A DNA stretch of 64,000 bases, from assembly GCF_056712565.1 (NCBI RefSeq), contig NZ_CM160072.1; one strand, 5' to 3'. Below, piece by piece: positions 19,972-32,326 of this stretch. Position 1 is the stretch's first letter. Every line of letters begins with the position of its first letter. Below the pieces are notes generated by a model. It was not told the DNA's origin, made no database searches, and saw only the letters and a program-made list of their open reading frames with translations. The translations under genes and the position numbers were made by a program.

Positions 19972-20315
19972 CAATGGATTATTCACAGTTAAGTGATTTT
20001 GAAATTAACAGAATGGTAGGAGACATAATTTTTAAAGGCCTTTGGGCAAGTAAACCGGAAACATCAGGGAATAACACCAACAAATGGTATTACGGAAATG
20101 CTGATACAACTTTTGAGCCATTAAATCATTTGCCTGACTACTGCAATGATCCGAGCGCTTCATGGCCGATTATTGAGAAATACAGGATTTCTATCTTAGA
20201 CCAGTTAACTGAATGGTGTGTGGATGCAAAAGGCGTAAGCCCAATATTTGATACCAGACCTCTCCGCGCCGCCATGATTGTCTTTCTCCTGATGCAGGAG
20301 GCCAATAATGCTTAG
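19968..20315 (+). CDS. Hypothetical nin-region protein
   Basis: 115 aa from [24 protein letters not shown]...; start overlaps ninE stop (ATGA); no recognised domain. Confidence 0.5.
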
Positions 20316-20525
20316 CCCATCTCAATCCCTTCAATACCTGAAAGAAAGCATAGAGCGGGCTTCAATGTGCACAGAGTGGATTCTATCTAGGTTTAGCGCA
20401 TACAGAAGATTGCCGGTAAAGGGCATGCCAAGCAAGTCGATGCTGCATATGCAAAAGAATGCGCGCTGGAAGGTATGGCGAGAACACAGGTTATGTGGCT
20501 GAAAGAGGGGGTTATTAAGGCGTGA
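20308..20525 (+). pseudogene. Mosaic remnant: NinF-like N-terminus joined to YbcO-like C-terminus in another frame
   Basis: Frame 1 starts [18 protein letters not shown] (NinF-like) then diverges; a second frame ends ...[29 protein letters not shown] which matches the C-terminus I recall for DLP12 YbcO. Confidence 0.5.
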
Positions 20526-20884
20526 ATACCTACAGCATCACATTACCCTGGCCTCCGAGCAATAATCGCTATTACCGCCATAATCGCGGGCGCACGCACG
20601 TCAGCGCAGAGGGGCAGGCATACCGCGATAACGTCGCCCGAATCATTAAAAACGCAATGCTGGATATCGGCCTGGCTATGCCTGTGAAAATCCGCATTGA
20701 GTGCCACATGCCGGATCGCCGTCGCCGTGACCTGGATAATCTGCAAAAAGCCGCTTTTGACGCACTCACTAAAGCAGGTTTCTGGCTGGATGATGCTCAG
20801 GTCGTTGATTACCGCGTTGTGAAGATGCCTGTTACCAAAGGTGGGAGGCTGGAACTGACCATCACCGAAATGGGGAATGAATGA
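20522..20884 (+). CDS. rusA: Holliday junction resolvase RusA
   Basis: 120 aa; [48 protein letters not shown]... Confidence 0.92.
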
Positions 20885-21021
20885 TGTTTGAGTTTAATAT
20901 GGCAGAACTTCTTCGCCACCGCTGGGGGCGTCTGCGCTTATATCGTTTCCTCGGTTCTGTTTTGACCGATTACCGAATACTGAAGAATTACGCCAAAACC
21001 CTGACAGGAACAGGAGTATGA
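20881..21021 (+). CDS. ylcG: YlcG-like small protein
   Basis: 46 aa [46 protein letters not shown]; below ORF-track cutoff; same position as ylcG after rusA in DLP12. Confidence 0.7.
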
Positions 21022-21106
21022 AGTCAGAGATAACAATCAACTAATACTGTTTTGTTGATTTTTGCTTGTAATTGGCGTTCTGGTCTGATTTTTGTGGAGT
21101 AAGTTG

Positions 21107-21490
21107 ATGCGTGATATTCAGATGGTTCTTGAGCGTTGGGGTGCGTGGGCGGCTAATAATCATGAAGATGTGACCTGGTCGTCCATTGCCGCCGGTTTTA
21201 AGGGATTAATTCCTTCAAAAGTAAAATCTCGCCCGCAATGTTGTGACGATGACGCGATGATCATTTGCGGGTGCATGGCCCGTCTGAAAAAGAACAACAG
21301 CGATTTACACGATTTATTAGTAGATTATTATGTATGTGGTATGACATTCATGTCACTGGCAAGTAAGCATTGCTGCTCGGATGGTTATATCGGGAAAAGG
21401 TTACAGAAGGCTGAGGGCATAATTGAAGGGATGTTAATGGCATTAGATATCCGGTTAGATATGGATATCGTTGCTAATAATTCTAATTGA
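21107..21490 (+). CDS. quuD: Late gene antiterminator Q (QuuD/phage 82-type)
   Basis: 127 aa from [60 protein letters not shown]...; GGAG RBS. Confidence 0.88.
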
Positions 21491-21626
21491 TATGCAATTG
21501 TTTACTAAAAGTTATTAAAAATGGGGCGTGGAAACGCCCCCAAAATAAAGGGTAATATATAACAGAAGGTTTATATAGTAAGAAGCAAGGTAGTGCTTCT
21601 AAAGGAAGTGGCTTGAGGGCTCCACT

Positions 21627-21669
21627 TATATGTTGCGGAGGCAAAGCCTCCCGCAACATATCTTTTTCG
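21627..21669. terminator. tR'-like terminator downstream of Q; also 10 bp past the porin stop
   Basis: Imperfect hairpin ATATGTTGCGGAGGCAAAGCCTCCCGCAACATAT followed by CTTTTTCG on the plus strand. Confidence 0.65.
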
Positions 21670-21678
21670 TAAGTCAGA

Positions 21679-22761
21679 TTAGAACTGATAAACCAGACCT
21701 ACAGCGACGATGTCGTCGGTATCAATACCAGCTGTTTTGGTAAACTTACTATCGTCAATTAAGTTGATTTTGTAATCAACAAAAGTGGACATGTTTTTAT
21801 TAAAGTAGTAAGTAGCACCGACATCGACATACTTGACTAAGTCTCGGTCACCATGAACACCAAGGTCTTTACCTTTTGACTGAAGGTAAGCAACAGATGG
21901 ACGCAGACCGAAGTCAAACTGATATTGTGCTACTGCTTCAAAGTTTTGTGCTTTGTTTGCAATATGGTTATTACCAAAAACGGTCATATTCTGAGTTTCA
22001 GAATATGTGGTAGCCAGATAGATATTGTTCGCATCATATTTCAGGCCTGCAGCCCATACTTCCGCATTTTTGCCGGAGGCATTGAATTTGCTCTTACCAT
22101 AGGCGACCTGACCGTCAGTGCGATCTGATTTAGCATAGGTTGCACCCACGCCGAATCCTTCATACTCATAAGTAGTGGAGAAACCGAAACCATCACCATT
22201 GGCTTCAGTTACGTCAGTGCGGTCATTTTTACCCTGATACTGAGCAGCAAAGTTCAGGCCATCGACCAGACCAAAGAAGTCGTTGTTACGATAAGTTGCA
22301 ACACCAGTAGTGCGACCAGTCATGAACACATCTGTTTGGGTCCAGGTATCACCACCGAATTCTGGCAGAACGTCAGTCCACGCACCGATGTCGTATGCTA
22401 CACCGTAGTTACGGCCGTAATCGATTGAGCCGTAATCACCAAATTTCAGGCCTGCAAATGCAAGACGGGTTTTGTCTTTGGAAGAACCTTGAGATTCAGC
22501 ACGGTTGCCTTTGAATTCATATTCCCACTGACCGAAACCAGTCAGTTGATCGTTGATTTGGGTTTCACCTTTGAAGCCAAGACGGGCATAAGTAGTATCA
22601 CCATCATCTGCATCATTAGAGGAGAAGTAGTGCTTGGCATTAACTTTCCCGTATAGATCCAGCTTGTTACTGTCTTTATTATAAATTTCAGCTGCCTGAG
22701 CAGACATCGCCATCAGTACTGATGCAGCTACAGCAGAAATTGCCACTGTTAATTTTTTCAT
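21679..22761 (-). CDS. nmpC: OmpC/NmpC-family outer membrane porin (prophage moron)
   Basis: Signal peptide [24 protein letters not shown]-terminal ...VGLVYQF beta-barrel terminus, porin-like body; inserted between Q and lysis genes on the opposite strand. Confidence 0.88.
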
Positions 22762-23187
22762 TGTACGCCCTTTTTTTGAACTATTATTAAAAAATGATGT
22801 CACTGCGCGATAAATATTCATCTAATCAATGTGATTATTTCAAGATGTAAGTTTTAGTTTCTCATTTAATTTGTGAAGTAGATCTCTATTTTTATCTGAA
22901 CCTTTTCTATCTAATCCTATTCATGGCTCTTGTCTGAACAAAAATAAATCTATTAGCTAATTTATATTAATGGCACTTATTTATAAGTGCTCTATAATTC
23001 TTTAGCTTAATTTAAACAAACTAAAAATAACATTGGAAATTATTAACTGGTTATTTGTTGAAGTTTTCTTATGCATTTGTGGTGGTGTTTTGAACACTCG
23101 GTGGCATTCTCACAAATATCATTTAGTAGTTTACGTACGTAAAAAATTGGTTATGCTGTTAAGAGTGGTTACTTCGTCACACAGCTT

Positions 23188-23220
23188 AAACCCGCCGTCG
23201 AGCGGGTTTTTCCATTTTTT
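23188..23220 (+). terminator. Orphan rho-independent terminator in porin-holin intergenic region
   Basis: AAACCCGCCGTCGAGCGGGTTTTTCCATTTTTT. Confidence 0.5.
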
Positions 23221-23349
23221 GAGTCTCGATATTAGCTGATAACCCAATACCTGAGTTATTCACTGACTCCGAATCTGTTACGTTTCTGCCTTTATTGCGA
23301 TACGTAGTATCCCCTTAATTTACACCCGCTTTGTCTGCGAGGTGGGGTT

Positions 23350-23565
23350 ATGAAATCCATGGATAAGTTAACAACGGGTGTCGCCTATGGTACCTCAGCA
23401 GGTAGTGCCGGGTACTGGTTTTTACAGTTGCTCGATAAAGTCACGCCCTCACAGTGGGCGGCAATAGGTGTGCTGGGTAGCCTGGTATTTGGCCTGCTGA
23501 CGTACCTGACAAACCTTTATTTCAAGATTAAAGAAGATAAGCGCAAGGCTGCGAGAGGTGAATAA
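23350..23565 (+). CDS. S: Class II pinholin (phage 21 S-type), dual-start
   Basis: 71 aa [71 protein letters not shown] with two TM segments. Confidence 0.9.
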
Positions 23566-24062
23566 TGCCTCCATCATTACGAAAAGCCGTTGCTGCTGCT
23601 ATTGGTGGCGGAGCAATTGCTATAGCATCAGTGTTAATCACTGGCCCAAGTGGTAACGATGGTCTGGAAGGTGTCAGCTACATACCATACAAAGATATTG
23701 TTGGTGTATGGACTGTATGTCACGGGCATACAGGAAAAGACATCATGCTCGGTAAAACGTATACCAAAGCAGAATGCAAAGCCCTCCTGAATAAAGACCT
23801 TGCCACGGTCGCCAGACAAATTAACCCGTACATCAAAGTCGATATACCGGAAACAATGCGCGGCGCTCTTTACTCATTCGTTTACAACGTGGGTGCTGGC
23901 AATTTCAGAACATCGACGCTTCTTCGCAAAATAAACCAGGGCGATATCAAAGGCGCATGTGATCAGCTACGTCGCTGGACATATGCTGGCGGTAAGCAAT
24001 GGAAAGGTCTCATGACTCGTCGTGAGATTGAGCGTGAAATCTGTTTGTGGGGTCAGCAATGA
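23565..24062 (+). CDS. R: SAR endolysin (T4 lysozyme-like, phage 21 R-type)
   Basis: 165 aa; N-terminal signal-anchor-release segment [20 protein letters not shown] followed by lysozyme fold. Confidence 0.88.
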
Positions 24063-24520
24063 ACAGAGTAACCGCGATTATCTCCGCTCTGGTTATCTGC
24101 ATCATCGTCTGCCTGTCATGGGCTGTTAATCATTACCGTGATAACGCCATTACCTACAAAGCCCAGCGCGACAAAAATGCCAGAGAACTGACGCTGGCGA
24201 ACGCGGTAATTACTGACATACAGATGCGTCAGCGTGATGTTGCTGCGCTCGATGCAAAATACACGAAGGAGTTAGCTGATGCGAAAGCTGAAAATGATGC
24301 TCTGCGTGATGATGTTGCCGCTGGTCGTCGTCGGTTGCACATCAAAGCAGTCTGTCAGTCAGTGCGTGAAGCCACCACCGCCTCCGGCGTGGATAATGCA
24401 GCCTCCCCCCGACTGGCAGACACCGCTGAACGGGATTATTTCACCCTCAGAGAGAGGCTGATCACTATGCAAAAACAACTGGAAGGAACCCAGAAGTATA
24501 TTAATGAGCAGTGCAGATAG
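24059..24520 (+). CDS. Rz: i-spanin Rz
   Basis: 153 aa from [19 protein letters not shown]... with N-terminal TM and coiled-coil region; overlaps endolysin stop. Confidence 0.85.
24279..24461 (+). CDS. Rz1: o-spanin Rz1 lipoprotein, embedded in Rz in the +1 frame
   Basis: 60 aa; lipobox LPLVVVGC and proline-rich stretch [15 protein letters not shown]. Confidence 0.85.
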
Positions 24521-24551
24521 AGCTGCCCATATCGATGGGCAACTCATGCAA

Positions 24552-24845
24552 TTATTGTGAGCAATACACACGCGCTTCCAGCGGAGTATAAATGCCTAAA
24601 GTAATAAAACCGAGCAATCCATTTACGAATGTTTGCTGGGTTTCTGTTTTAACAACATTTTCTGCACCACCACAAATTTTTGCTGCATCGACAGTTTTCT
24701 TCTGCCCAATTCCCGAAACGAAGAAATGATGGGTGATGGTTTCCTTTGGTGTTACTGCTGTAGGTTTGTTTCCAACAGTAAACGTCTGTTGAGCACATCC
24801 TGTAATAAGCATTGCCAGAGCGGCAGAAAACAACATTTTTTTCAT
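24552..24845 (-). CDS. bor: Bor lipoprotein (serum resistance, lysogenic conversion)
   Basis: 97 aa from MKKMLFSAALAMLITGCAQQTFTVGNKPTAVTPKETITHHFFVSGIGQKKTVDAAKICGG... Confidence 0.9.
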   Translation of the reverse strand: MKKMLFSAALAMLITGCAQQTFTVGNKPTAVTPKETITHHFFVSGIGQKKTVDAAKICGGAENVVKTETQQTFVNGLLGFITLGIYTPLEARVYCSQ

Positions 24846-25325
24846 CTTATTATCCTGCATTGTTAAAAACGGCAGAATCCTATGTGACAACAATTAAACG
24901 ATAGTTAAATGGATTGATGAAAATTAAAACTACACAGGTGGGCTCAGACTATTGGAGGAAGTTGGGGACACTCAGAATCCTGTGGAATGAAATAAACCGG
25001 TCTATCCGTCCATTACCCTTTTAGCTGCGCTGTATCGTCGCCGTATTCCCGCATTAACCATGACCGTAGCCCGACGGGGAATTCCTTCTGCGTGAGTGTG
25101 CGGGAATAATTAAAAACGATGCACACCGGGTTTTTACCGCGTTAATGATTCGCGGGTTTATCCCGGTGCGATGGTGGAAGAAACAGGAAGCTGTATTACA
25201 GAAAGTGCTACTACTGTATCCCGATGCGATGTATGTAATGTGAGTCAGATAATGGCACAGGATGTGGTGATGTGGCAGTCTGGAACACAGGATATATTGT
25301 CAGAATAAGACCCGTAGGAATAAAA

Positions 25326-25652
25326 ATGAAAAGACGCCTTTTACTACTTTTTCTGTTATCTGTCCTGGCAGTGGGATGCTCGCAGCAAAAAGCTGATGAG
25401 CCCCGGCAATTAGTGACGGTGTATCCACGATATCCGGAATATGCTGCAGCAAATTATATCAAGGGGCTGGTTGAGGTTAAGTTCGATATTGGTGCTGATG
25501 GGACTGTGACACGGATCGTTTTTCTCCGCTCAGAGCCTCATAATTTGTTTCGTGATGAAGTGGTGAAGGCCATGGCGAAATGGCGATTTGAAAAGAATCG
25601 CCCCTGTCAGGGAGTGAAGAGACAATTTATCTTTACGCCGTCACGTCCTTGA
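25326..25652 (+). CDS. Putative lipoprotein with TonB C-terminal-like domain
   Basis: 108 aa from MKRRLLLLFLLSVLAVGCSQ (lipobox); YPRYPEYAAANYIKGLVEVKFDIGADGTVTRIV resembles TonB C-terminal domain. Confidence 0.55.
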   Translation: MKRRLLLLFLLSVLAVGCSQQKADEPRQLVTVYPRYPEYAAANYIKGLVEVKFDIGADGTVTRIVFLRSEPHNLFRDEVVKAMAKWRFEKNRPCQGVKRQFIFTPSRP

Positions 25653-26015
25653 TGCTTCCAGGTAGAGAGGGGCTGGAAGCAGGAGAAAAATGAAAGAGCC
25701 AGCGGTTATATTTTTGTCATGGCTGACGAGGAATGATGGAAGAAGGCGTTGTATGCCACACAACGCCTCACTGTTCATTTCTTCTTTTTCTCTGGTGGAA
25801 CCCGATGAATAAGAGTTGCACTGGTTTCCGATGAGATGGCGATATACTCGGGCAAAGTATGCTGGCAGTTTTCCAACTGGTCAAAAATACCTGCTCTCGT
25901 CTGTTGCAATGCCTGCAGCATGCGGCGGCAATGCGCCTTGCTTTTACTAACCATCTTTCCTTCCTCTATCAGTCGCTGCGTGAACTCATCATGGAATACC
26001 AGGTAAATGCGGATG

Positions 26016-29242: not shown

Positions 29243-30831
29243 AACGAACGCCTGTCCTGATTGATGTGAACGGCGTTCCGCTTCGTGAGAGTCTCAGCTA
29301 CAACGGGGGCGGTGCAGGATTTGGCGGGCAAATGGCTGAGTGGTTGCCACCGGCGCAGAGTGCCGATGCGGCCCTGCTGCCCGCGTTGCGTCTGGGGAAT
29401 GCCCGGGCAGATGATCTGGTGCGCAATAACGGAATAGCGGCTAATGCGGTGGCTCTGCATAAGGATCACATTGTCGGGCATATGTTTCTGATTAGCTACC
29501 GTCCGAACTGGCGCTGGCTGGGGATGCGGGAGACCGCAGCAAAAAGCTTTGTCGATGAGGTGGAGGCGGCCTGGTCGGAATACGCCGAAGGGATGTTTGG
29601 CGAGATCGACGTGGAAGGAAAACGCACGTTCACGGAATTTATCCGTGAAGGTGTGGGCGTTCATGCGTTTAACGGCGAAATCTTTGTGCAGCCGGTCTGG
29701 GATACGGAGAGTACGCAACTGTTTCGTACGCGTTTTAAAGCCGTGAGTCCGAAACGGGTGGACACGCCAGGACACGGTATCGGGAACCGTTTTCTGCGGG
29801 CCGGTGTGGAGGTTGATCGATATGGCCGTGCCGTCGCGTACCATATCTGTGAGGATGATTTTCCGTTCTCTGGTAGTGGACGATGGGAACGGATCCCGCG
29901 TGAACTTCCCACCGGGCGTCCGGCCATGCTGCATATTTTCGAGCCGGTGGAGGACGGGCAGACCCGTGGGGCTAATCAGTTTTACAGCGTTATGGAACGG
30001 CTGAAGATGCTCGATTCCCTGCAGGCAACACAGCTTCAGTCGGCCATAGTGAAGGCGATGTATGCAGCGACGATTGAAAGTGAACTTGATACCGAAAAGG
30101 CCTTTGAATATATCGCCGGCGCGCCACAGGAGCAGAAGGATAATCCGCTTATTAATATTCTGGAGAAGTTTTCCAGCTGGTATGACACGAATAGCGTGAC
30201 GCTGGGCGGTGTCAAAATTCCGCACCTTTTCCCTGGTGATGATCTGAAACTACAGACTGCGCAGGATTCAGACAATGGATTTTCTGCGCTTGAACAGGCG
30301 CTGCTGCGGTATATCGCCGCCGGTCTTGGCGTTTCCTACGAACAGTTGTCCCGTGATTACTCGAAGGTCAGTTACTCAAGTGCCCGCGCCTCCGCCAATG
30401 AGTCGTGGCGCTATTTTATGGGGCGGCGAAAATTTATTGCGGCCCGGCTGGCCACGCAGATGTTTTCCTGCTGGCTGGAAGAGGCACTTCTTCGGGGGAT
30501 TATTCGTCCGCCACGGGCACGTTTTGATTTTTATCAGGCGCGATCAGCCTGGTCACGGGCAGAGTGGATTGGTGCCGGAAGAATGGCCATTGACGGGCTC
30601 AAGGAAGTCCAGGAATCAGTGATGCGCATTGAGGCCGGACTGAGCACGTATGAGAAAGAGCTGGCGCTGATGGGCGAGGATTATCAGGACATTTTCCGCC
30701 AGCAGGTCAGGGAATCTGCTGAGCGGCAAAAAGCCGGACTCTCACGTCCGGTGTGGATAGAGCAGGCGTATCAGCAGCAGATAGCGGAGAGTCGCAGGCC
30801 GGAAGAGGAGACAACACCACGTGAGACGTAA
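29239..30831 (+). CDS. B: Portal protein B
   Basis: 530 aa from MKRTPVLIDVNGVPLRESLSYNGGGAGFGGQMAEW (lambda gpB-like). Confidence 0.92.
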   Translation: MKRTPVLIDVNGVPLRESLSYNGGGAGFGGQMAEWLPPAQSADAALLPALRLGNARADDLVRNNGIAANAVALHKDHIVGHMFLISYRPNWRWLGMRETAAKSFVDEVEAAWSEYAEGMFGEIDVEGKRTFTEFIREGVGVHAFNGEIFVQPVWDTESTQLFRTRFKAVSPKRVDTPGHGIGNRFLRAGVEVDRYGRAVAYHICEDDFPFSGSGRWERIPRELPTGRPAMLHIFEPVEDGQTRGANQFYSVMERLKMLDSLQATQLQSAIVKAMYAATIESELDTEKAFEYIAGAPQEQKDNPLINILEKFSSWYDTNSVTLGGVKIPHLFPGDDLKLQTAQDSDNGFSALEQALLRYIAAGLGVSYEQLSRDYSKVSYSSARASANESWRYFMGRRKFIAARLATQMFSCWLEEALLRGIIRPPRARFDFYQARSAWSRAEWIGAGRMAIDGLKEVQESVMRIEAGLSTYEKELALMGEDYQDIFRQQVRESAERQKAGLSRPVWIEQAYQQQIAESRRPEEETTPRET

Positions 30832-32326
30832 TCTTTCACACATTATTGCCGCAGCATTCAATGAACCGCTGCTTCTGGAGCCCGCCTATGCGCGGGTTTT
30901 CTTTTGCGCGCTCGGGCGCGAGATGGGGGCAGCAAGTCTTTCGGTACCACAACAGCAGGTACAGTTTGATGCTCCCGGAATGCTGGCTGAAACGGACGAG
31001 TACATGGCCGGAGGTAAACGACCGGCCCGTGTTTACCGGGTGGTGAACGGTATTGCTGTACTGCCGGTGACCGGCACGCTGGTGCACCGGCTGGGTGGTA
31101 TGCGGCCATTTTCCGGAATGACAGGCTATGACGGCATTGTCGCCTGTCTTCAGCAGGCAATGGCGGATAGCCAGGTGCGGGGCGTACTGCTGGACATTGA
31201 CAGTCCGGGCGGGCAGGCCGCCGGCGCGTTTGACTGCGCTGACATGATTTACCGCCTCCGTCAGCAGAAGCCGGTCTGGGCACTGTGCAATGACACGGCC
31301 TGTTCTGCAGCCATGCTGCTGGCGTCGGCCTGCTCCCGACGGCTGGTTACCCAGACATCCCGTATCGGCTCCATTGGCGTGATGATGAGCCATGTCAGCT
31401 ATGCCGGTCATCTGGCGCAGGCCGGTGTGGATATCACGCTGATTTACTCAGGGGCGCACAAGGTGGATGGCAATCAGTTTGAAGCGTTGCCGGCAGAGGT
31501 TCGCCAGGACATGCAGCAGCGGATTGATGCGGCGCGCCGGATGTTTGCCGAAAAAGTGGCGATGTATACCGGTCTGTCTGTTGATGCCGTCACGGGAACA
31601 GAGGCTGCCGTTTTTGAAGGTCAGTCCGGCATTGAGGCCGGGCTGGCGGATGAATTAATCAATGCGTCGGATGCCATCAGTGTGATGGCCACGGCGCTGA
31701 ACAGTAATGTCAGAGGAGGCACTATGCCGCAATTAACTGCAACGGAAGCCGCCGCGCAGGAGAACCAGCGAGTGATGGGGATCCTGACATGCCAGGAAGC
31801 GAAAGGACGTGAACAGCTTGCCACGATGCTGGCAGGACAACAGGGCATGAGCGTTGAACAGGCCCGGGCGATTCTGGCCGCGGCGGCACCGCAGCAGCCG
31901 GTGGCATCCACGCAGAGTGAAGCCGATCGCATTATGGTGTGTGAAGAAGCGAACGGTCGTGAACAACTGGCGGCAACGCTGGCGGCGATGCCGGAGATGA
32001 CGGTGGAAAAAGCCCGCCCGATCCTGGCGGCTGCACCACTGGCGGATGCCGGACCATCACTCCGTGATCAGATCATGGCCCTGGATGAGGCAAAAGGGGC
32101 TGAGGCGCAGGCTGAACAGCTGGCTGCCTGCCCGGGAATGACAGTGGAGAGCGCCCGGGCTGTGCTGGCTGCGGGATCAGGTAAGGCAGAACCGGTCTCT
32201 GCATCCACAACCGCCATGTTTGAACATTTCATGGCGAACCATTCACCGGCAGCGGTACAGGGTGGCGTGGCACAGACGTCAGCAGACGGTGATGCGGACG
32301 TGAAAATGCTCATGGCCATGCCATGA
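30821..32326 (+). CDS. C: Capsid assembly protease C (S49 family) with in-frame scaffold (Nu3) region
   Basis: 501 aa; N-terminus AAFNEPLLLEPAYARVFFCAL and S49 core match lambda gpC; C-terminal part carries three tandem ~45 aa repeats. Confidence 0.88.
   Translation: MRRNLSHIIAAAFNEPLLLEPAYARVFFCALGREMGAASLSVPQQQVQFDAPGMLAETDEYMAGGKRPARVYRVVNGIAVLPVTGTLVHRLGGMRPFSGMTGYDGIVACLQQAMADSQVRGVLLDIDSPGGQAAGAFDCADMIYRLRQQKPVWALCNDTACSAAMLLASACSRRLVTQTSRIGSIGVMMSHVSYAGHLAQAGVDITLIYSGAHKVDGNQFEALPAEVRQDMQQRIDAARRMFAEKVAMYTGLSVDAVTGTEAAVFEGQSGIEAGLADELINASDAISVMATALNSNVRGGTMPQLTATEAAAQENQRVMGILTCQEAKGREQLATMLAGQQGMSVEQARAILAAAAPQQPVASTQSEADRIMVCEEANGREQLAATLAAMPEMTVEKARPILAAAPLADAGPSLRDQIMALDEAKGAEAQAEQLAACPGMTVESARAVLAAGSGKAEPVSASTTAMFEHFMANHSPAAVQGGVAQTSADGDADVKMLMAMP

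Follow-up and report, generated by a model that had tools for sequence, protein, structure and literature searches.

A hairpin ahead of the lysis genes in a DLP12/PA-2-type prophage is probably the promoter-proximal terminator of a Q-dependent late promoter

The window analysed here is a single stretch of 64,000 nucleotides in which a plus-strand hairpin (23188-23209), followed by the T-rich tail TTCCATTTTTT ending at 23220, stands ahead of a set of phage lysis genes. A previous sequence-only reading had described this hairpin with its T run and had found no convincing plus-strand gene upstream of it. Both observations hold, the structure being conserved in a family of related elements and the nearest upstream gene being a porin gene on the minus strand (21679-22764). 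The question raised by the locus is which RNA such a terminator would end. The hairpin had been called an orphan that may either form the 3' end of some small RNA or have to be read through by Q-modified polymerase on its way to the lysis genes. The two proposals are supported together, as both describe a terminator close to a late promoter, and the hairpin is probably the promoter-proximal intrinsic terminator of a Q-dependent pR', the functional counterpart of lambda tR'. The name of orphan has to be given up: a transcription unit of its own is predicted to begin at about 23164, only 24 nt before the hairpin, and this is why no gene was seen upstream.

The hairpin belongs to the late-control and lysis module of a lambdoid prophage of the DLP12/PA-2 type, with the gene order rusA, ylcG, Q, porin (opposite strand), intergenic region, holin, SAR endolysin, Rz/Rz1 and bor. 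The Q antiterminator gene (21107-21490, plus strand) encodes 127 amino acids of the QuuD type (Pfam PF06530, Phage_antitermQ, E = 6.7e-54). The porin gene is of the nmpC/lc type (Pfam Porin_1, E = 1.9e-151) and lies as cargo between Q and the late promoter. The plus strand then carries a holin gene of the S21 type with a dual start (23350-23565; Pfam PF04971, E = 2e-35), an endolysin gene (23565-24062; Pfam Phage_lysozyme, E = 1.3e-45) and an Rz spanin gene with Rz1 embedded (24059-24520), the last identified from the list of open reading frames and the homologous annotation in K-12 and in phage records. The hairpin sits in the 585-bp gap from the minus-strand porin gene to the phage-21-type holin gene. 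The arrangement of Q, porin and promoter is also found in PA-2, phage 434, ev017 and other phages. The intergenic region with the hairpin was identified in 3276 of 5426 complete E. coli genomes and in 43 phage records, PA-2 and phage 434 included; isolated phages have an identical region, E. coli DSM 30083 is 100% identical over it, and DLP12 of K-12 is about 91% identical, with an identical hairpin. No annotated feature covers the intergenic region in the complete E. coli genomes compared.

On the other side of the porin gene, between the stop codons of Q (21490) and porin (21679), convergent terminators were identified in 21523-21668. The terminator of the porin transcript is on the minus strand (GGGGCGTTTCCACGCCCC followed by ATTTTT, a hairpin and T run at 21540-21523), and the one after Q is on the plus strand (a hairpin with a 14-bp stem followed by CTTTTT, 21628-21668). 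The 3' ends of the two transcripts would overlap by about 145 nt. We take IpeX to be located in the nmpC/lc 3' untranslated region, and the region of the porin-transcript terminator (21523-21678) is presumably a 3' UTR of the IpeX type, after Castillo-Keller 2006. The hairpin itself was rejected as the IpeX RNA of DLP12/PA-2, the nmpC 3' region being 21523-21678 on the minus strand and the hairpin lying beyond the opposite end of the gene, on the plus strand.

The hairpin comprises an 8-bp stem with 5 G-C pairs, formed by AAACCCGC (23188-23195) and GCGGGTTT (23202-23209), and a 6-nt loop, CGTCGA. It is thus a G+C-rich stem-loop directly 5' of a U tract, as expected of an intrinsic terminator, and its fold energy by itself is -11.5 kcal/mol. 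The tail (23210-23220, plus strand) is the expected site of RNA release; its U tract, UUUUUCCAUUUUUU, is not continuous, being interrupted by CCA. In the PA-2 subgroup a mismatch in the stem leaves -5.3 kcal/mol versus -11.5 in the window. A terminator acting on the minus strand was ruled out, the T run being absent from that side. Judged on its bare pattern the hairpin is not clearly beyond chance: 20000-26000 contains 9 terminator-like sites versus 5.9 +/- 2.2 for shuffled sequence, and the 61-nt fold has z = -1.83, equally stable folds arising in 8 of 200 shuffles. Its significance comes from homology and comparison and not from the pattern alone.

No Rfam family among all 4227 gave an overlapping match at the gathering threshold. 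The best overlapping one was Trp_leader (20.2 bits versus a threshold of 41, E = 0.88), and this and a sub-threshold match to sau-19 are both due to hairpins. The published Term-seq supplementary data searched contain no 5' or 3' ends for essD or nmpC. A scan of 23210-23349 gave no second plus-strand terminator-like site before the holin gene; the remaining late leader (23221-23349, plus strand) has no further terminator, and the hairpin is the sole one preceding the holin, endolysin and Rz genes.

The homology that places the hairpin is with the late promoter of Stx phages. A sensitive search with 23120-23349 as query showed that only 23127-23211 is shared with them, these 85 bp recurring with about 78% identity in more than 280 records of Stx1 and Stx2 phages. 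The homology stops exactly at the 3' edge of the hairpin, and in Stx phages the homologous DNA lies immediately 3' of the Q gene. Four blocks are conserved: the -35 element TTTACG; a 16-nt spacer with a small palindrome; the -10 element, TATGCT in the window and TATCAT in Stx phages; and a largely invariant TAAGAGTGGTTAC...CAC, after which the hairpin follows. In Sakai Sp5 the -35 element of the promoter TTTACG-16-TATCAT overlaps the Q stop codon, and a scan of L017 1000-2100, which covers the end of Q, gave no other sigma-70-like promoter on the plus strand.

A mosaic prophage was identified in E. coli AR_0017 (L008 3001-3990), where Q, porin and intergenic region are those of the window up to 23211 and are followed by Stx-phage-like DNA, a truncated methyltransferase gene and then tRNA-Ile and tRNA-Arg genes. 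The sequence switches at 23211, and the recombination junction therefore coincides with the 3' edge of the hairpin.

For Stx phages, the pR' start was determined by dRNA-seq and the 3' end at tR' by Term-seq, 258 nt apart, with the start placed in the motif AAGAG and an RNase E site GU/AUU at +173 (Sy et al., PMC7547250). Those coordinates refer to an older genome version, and the placement was done through the published distances. With the start at the A located 7 nt past the -10 element, which is base four of AAGAG, the second terminator has the end of its U run exactly at +258 and GUAUU falls at +172-176, which fits Sp5 and, independently, Sp15. The start in the window is placed at A23164 because this base is homologous to the mapped Stx-phage start.

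By this homology pR' comprises the -35 element TTTACG (23130-35), a 16-nt spacer and the -10 element TATGCT (23152-57), followed by the predicted start A23164 and the initial transcribed region AGTGGTTACTTCGTCACACAG (23164-23184), all on the plus strand. The latter is largely invariant, with few variable positions, in the BLAST-derived alignment A1. Counted from A23164, the hairpin occupies +25 to +46, the tail +47 to +57, and the holin start codon is at +187. A sigma-70 promoter directly upstream of the hairpin is recognised by homology only and its activity is predicted. Its hexamers match the consensus at 8 of 12 positions, under the scan threshold. Inspection of the alignments gave no convincing or conserved -10-like hexamer in +1 to +21, and no sigma-dependent pause element was identified there. 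The covariance model described below finds the module in a single copy in the 64 kb (hit 23164-23223).

Other features proposed for the same bases were set aside. Two short ORFs over the site, one of 68 aa with a TTG start (23033-23239) and one of 38 aa on the minus strand (23131-23247, 'hypothetical' in PhiR63_2), are not credible because conservation is limited to 23127-23211 across unrelated flanks. The GenBank record of PA-2 (J02580.1) annotates a CRP site that is exactly +1 to +21 of the predicted leader (AGTGGTTACTTCGTCACACAG, 23164-23184). Its half-site spacing and left half fit CRP poorly, and the assignment is doubtful because phages that lack a porin gene conserve the motif too.

Alternative positions for the start were also considered. 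A late promoter right after Q (21491-21627, followed by the plus-strand terminator at 21628-21668) was rejected, as the convergent terminators of Q and porin fill the stretch and it holds no second copy of the module. A sigma-70-like site found by scanning, ATGGCA-17-TATAAT (22970-22998, plus strand), was set aside as a pR' yielding a 6S-like RNA of about 210 nt, the homology to the mapped Stx promoter beginning only at 23127. The published start of the DLP12 lysis operon belongs to a promoter of the sigma-E type (22776-22810, plus strand), derived indirectly from a construct and its primers. Its sequence tGAACTa-N16-TCACT fits what we take to be the sigma-E consensus. The DLP12 fragment cloned in PMC7918800 spans -121 to +650 in the numbering of Rueggeberg 2015, and primer Pdlp12Fw maps to 22689, which gives +1 at about A22810. 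This is the only published start of the K-12 operon and lies 354 nt upstream of the inferred pR' start. Transcripts from about 22810 or from 22970-22998 would meet the same hairpin.

The module belongs to a family. Viral contigs were scanned with the motif of the conserved initial region, giving about 100 distinct modules in which conservation of the motif is forced by the pattern itself. The features that recur outside it, and on which the pattern has no bearing, are an A-rich tract, an inverted repeat of variable sequence at the -35/spacer, the -10 element, AGCTTA and a hairpin that varies in sequence and is followed by a T run. A hairpin was counted when its stem had 5 bp or more, with 4 or more G-C pairs and no more than 1 G-U pair, its loop was 3-9 long and 5 or more of the 8 bases after it were T; of two other criteria set aside, the lax one passed 44% of the controls and the strict one 35 of the 97 modules, and the middle one was kept. 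With it, a terminator-like hairpin was identified at the equivalent position in 77 of 97 unique modules (79%), in 40 distinct sequences. Of 3000 windows drawn at random from the same loci, 72 passed (2.4%). The hairpins of the modules start at +24 to +40 and end at +43 to +61. In 67 of 101 leaders no other terminator lies within 350 nt; 14 have a second one, Stx phages among them.

Conservation of the structure was examined with a covariance model built from 15 members, which gave one match per locus. Standard pairs occupy 95.5% of the pair cells versus 86.8% after shuffling, a value reached in none of 500 shuffles, in an alignment that is fitted by the model and leans towards structure. The cells with both sides changed number 33, for 6.5 expected, in the same structure-biased alignment. 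When the registers of the alignment are slid, at most 67.5% are paired.

The window Q is a distant match to the phage 21 Q structures 6P18 and 6JNX (E = 4e-8) and has about 76% nucleotide identity to Stx-phage Q genes over the first 333 nt. It is on the strand of the module, its stop codon lying 1674 nt from the predicted start. Of 125 modules, 97 are preceded by a Q-family ORF in the same orientation, and among 84 unique pairs 20 have the Q stop within 60 nt of the start and 62 have it more than 500 nt away, so that a distant Q is the commoner arrangement in the family. The 10-bp palindrome TACGTACGTA (23132-23141, -32 to -23) fits a candidate Q-binding element. The classes of this inverted repeat include TACGTACGTA, TACGATCGTA, GCGTACGC, GCGGTCCGC and TCGTTACGA, and they track the Q subtype, with a median Q identity of 0.81 within a class and 0.48 between classes, although common descent could also link them. 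The covariation of repeat and Q holds across 0.5-2.9 kb of unrelated cargo.

The gap from Q to the late promoter (21491-23126 in the window; loci L002-L137) is a hot spot for cargo, which in the window is the porin gene. Of the 62 distinct pairs more than 500 nt apart, 55 have every gap ORF of 100 aa or longer on the opposite strand, 4 have these ORFs on the same strand and 3 have a mixture. Six of ten cargo proteins sampled match PADLOC defence families: PDC-S20, HEC-04, PDC-M53A, PD-Lambda-1, Aga REase and type II MTase.

The earlier proposal of a terminator read through under Q is favoured by a promoter 24 nt upstream that is homologous to the one mapped in Stx phages (Sy et al.), by a Q of the matching subtype upstream and by the holin, endolysin and Rz genes downstream. 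This is the layout of a lambdoid cassette, in which an intrinsic terminator separates the promoter from the late genes and the lysis genes lie beyond it. Sigma-70 polymerase would start at about A23164 and transcribe the conserved initial region of 21 nt, the hairpin and the U-rich tail. In a lysogen without Q, sequence and family conservation suggest that most transcripts would end at about +48 to +57, leaving a leader RNA of about 50 nt. Such termination would leave the lysis genes (holin, endolysin and Rz), which begin 186 nt past the start, largely silent. After induction Q, encoded 1.7 kb upstream, would bind near the promoter, for which the repeat at -32 to -23 is a candidate site, and load onto the polymerase, which is then predicted to read through the hairpin into the lysis and morphogenesis genes. 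In phage 21 the loaded Q narrows the RNA exit channel and terminator hairpins are unable to form (PMC6606751; bioRxiv 10.1101/651190). The terminator looks orphaned only because the minus-strand porin gene separates Q from pR'.

The nearest relative is the pR'/StxS-L leader of Sakai Sp5 and Sp15, with a Q of the 933W type. Promoter, initial region and first hairpin are homologous in the two and their Q proteins belong to the same family, but the Stx module abuts Q whereas the window has the porin gene between. The Stx RNA observed is defined by the second terminator at +258, which the window lacks. The functional 3' part of StxS (74 nt, +185 to +258, beside tR') has no match in the window; only StxS-L 1-47 matches, at 23164-23211.

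The StxS-L RNA (L017 1346-1603, and L138; Sakai Sp5, Sp15) contains a terminator-like hairpin at +24 to +45, GAACCCGCCGATGCGCGGGTTT followed by TTTTT (seven U after GCGGG). This homologue of the window hairpin has a fold energy of -12.0 kcal/mol and seven U. The passages searched in the main text of the StxS paper (PMC7547250) gave no mention of it. A lookalike of the Stx hairpin in the window (GAGCCCGCCTATGCGCGGGTTTTCTTTTG, 30878-30903) lies within a 501-aa ORF (30821-32326) and is probably coincidental, being coding sequence.

The first Stx hairpin lies inside an RNA of 258 nt made independently of Q (Sy et al.), and Stx polymerase must therefore pass it appreciably without Q. Either a product of about 50 nt was missed by the methods used or the promoter-proximal position weakens termination; a Stx product of that length may have gone undetected so far. 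The description of the window terminator as strong is for this reason uncertain.

In lambda a constitutive late promoter is followed by a terminator before the lysis genes (tR' at +194, versus about +50 in the window), a short abortive RNA is made in the lysogen, and Q-loaded polymerase reads through. The element of the window follows the same logic as lambda pR'-qut-tR' with its 6S RNA (PMC6606751 and textbook accounts). Sequence homology to lambda is absent, however; lambda Q is a different protein family and adjoins pR'. The resemblance to Q21-pR'21 of phage 21 comprises a distantly related Q, both being PF06530, and a holin and endolysin of the phage 21 type. The element bound by Q21 consists of direct TGAGCA repeats at about -24 to -11 (PMC6606751), unlike the inverted repeat at -32 to -23 that is the candidate in the window, and the promoter sequences are unrelated. 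For this reason pR'21 is a different type of promoter in spite of the distantly related Q.

The closest system in place is that of DLP12 in K-12, with QuuD (Q-DLP12) and a terminator upstream of essD, where the locus is the same and the hairpin is identical. A terminator about 100 bp upstream of essD was reportedly predicted, and control by Q-DLP12 shown, by Rueggeberg et al. in 2013 (Microbiology 159:691). The DLP12 lysis operon is described as under the control of a Q-type antiterminator in PMC7918800, which cites Rueggeberg 2013; Q-dependent read-through in DLP12 of K-12 was reportedly observed in that cited study. The difference is in the start, the published one being of the sigma-E type at about 22810 and the inferred pR' start 354 nt downstream.

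Other roles for the hairpin were weighed against that of a pR' terminator. It is unlikely, but the best of these, that the locus is mainly a small-RNA gene whose leader of about 50 nt (23164 to about 23215) is a candidate trans-acting regulator, constitutive in lysogens like StxS. Short RNAs are known from antiterminated late promoters, lambda 6S and StxS being examples (PMC7547250); the 3' hairpin and U tail of the leader are those of many Hfq-binding sRNAs, and the region is present in the 3276 E. coli genomes mentioned. The functional 74 nt at the 3' end of StxS are nevertheless without a homolog in the window, promoter function and Q loading account for what is conserved in the leader, and the sequence of the hairpin varies freely across the family, a better fit to a structural terminator than to a seed-bearing sRNA. 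If the small RNA were real, most E. coli strains would carry a short counterpart of 6S/StxS through DLP12-type remnants.

Quite improbable is a role mainly as an insulator, keeping plus-strand transcription that begins upstream in the porin regulatory region (about 22810, 22970-22998) out of the lysis genes, with the Q-dependent start elsewhere, for instance after Q. The published K-12 start puts the hairpin at +379 of its transcript, the promoter-like site at 22970-22998 could feed it as well, and the plus strand has a terminator also after Q (21628-21668). Against these stand the conservation of the module as a unit, with homology from 23127, and its position directly after Q in Stx phages, where the porin region is absent; right after the window Q the convergent terminators are found and no copy of the module. 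Since phages without the porin region have the module intact, insulation does not explain why the element exists, but it is likely to be a side effect: a terminator of pR' would also stop plus-strand transcripts from upstream starts such as that at about 22810.

It is very improbable that the hairpin is not primarily a terminator but a nascent-RNA element of the Q-loading site, a leader-stabilising stem-loop or a hairpin pause keeping polymerase close to promoter-bound Q. Passage of Stx polymerase through the homologue without Q would agree with this, as would the unusually constant position after the invariant initial region (starts at +24 to +40) and the short U tracts of some members, such as GGGTTTGTCG in L007. 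A pause or stability hairpin would not need the at least 5 T in 8 bases past the stem that 79% of the modules have, and the 67 of 101 leaders already mentioned have no other terminator ahead of the late genes. Known Q proteins, moreover, load at a sigma-dependent pause with no RNA hairpin needed (PMC6606751; bioRxiv 10.1101/651190). That the hairpin is a functionless chance resemblance is hardly worth considering, the frequency of such patterns in this AT-rich region (9 versus 5.9 expected) and the z of only -1.83 being outweighed by the family-wide conservation of position and structure in many different sequences and by mosaic breakpoints exactly at the hairpin 3' edge.

As a promoter-proximal terminator of pR' the element is of a textbook kind, ordinary lambdoid late-gene control, at a locus where a terminator and Q control were already reported. 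The late promoter of a very common prophage type can now be placed to the base, at 23164 in the window and 577,229 in K-12, with a predicted start 354 nt downstream of the only one published. The module also provides a simple signature in the sequence by which late promoters parted from their Q genes can be found. In prophages of the window type the lysis genes would be guarded by a single, possibly leaky, terminator.
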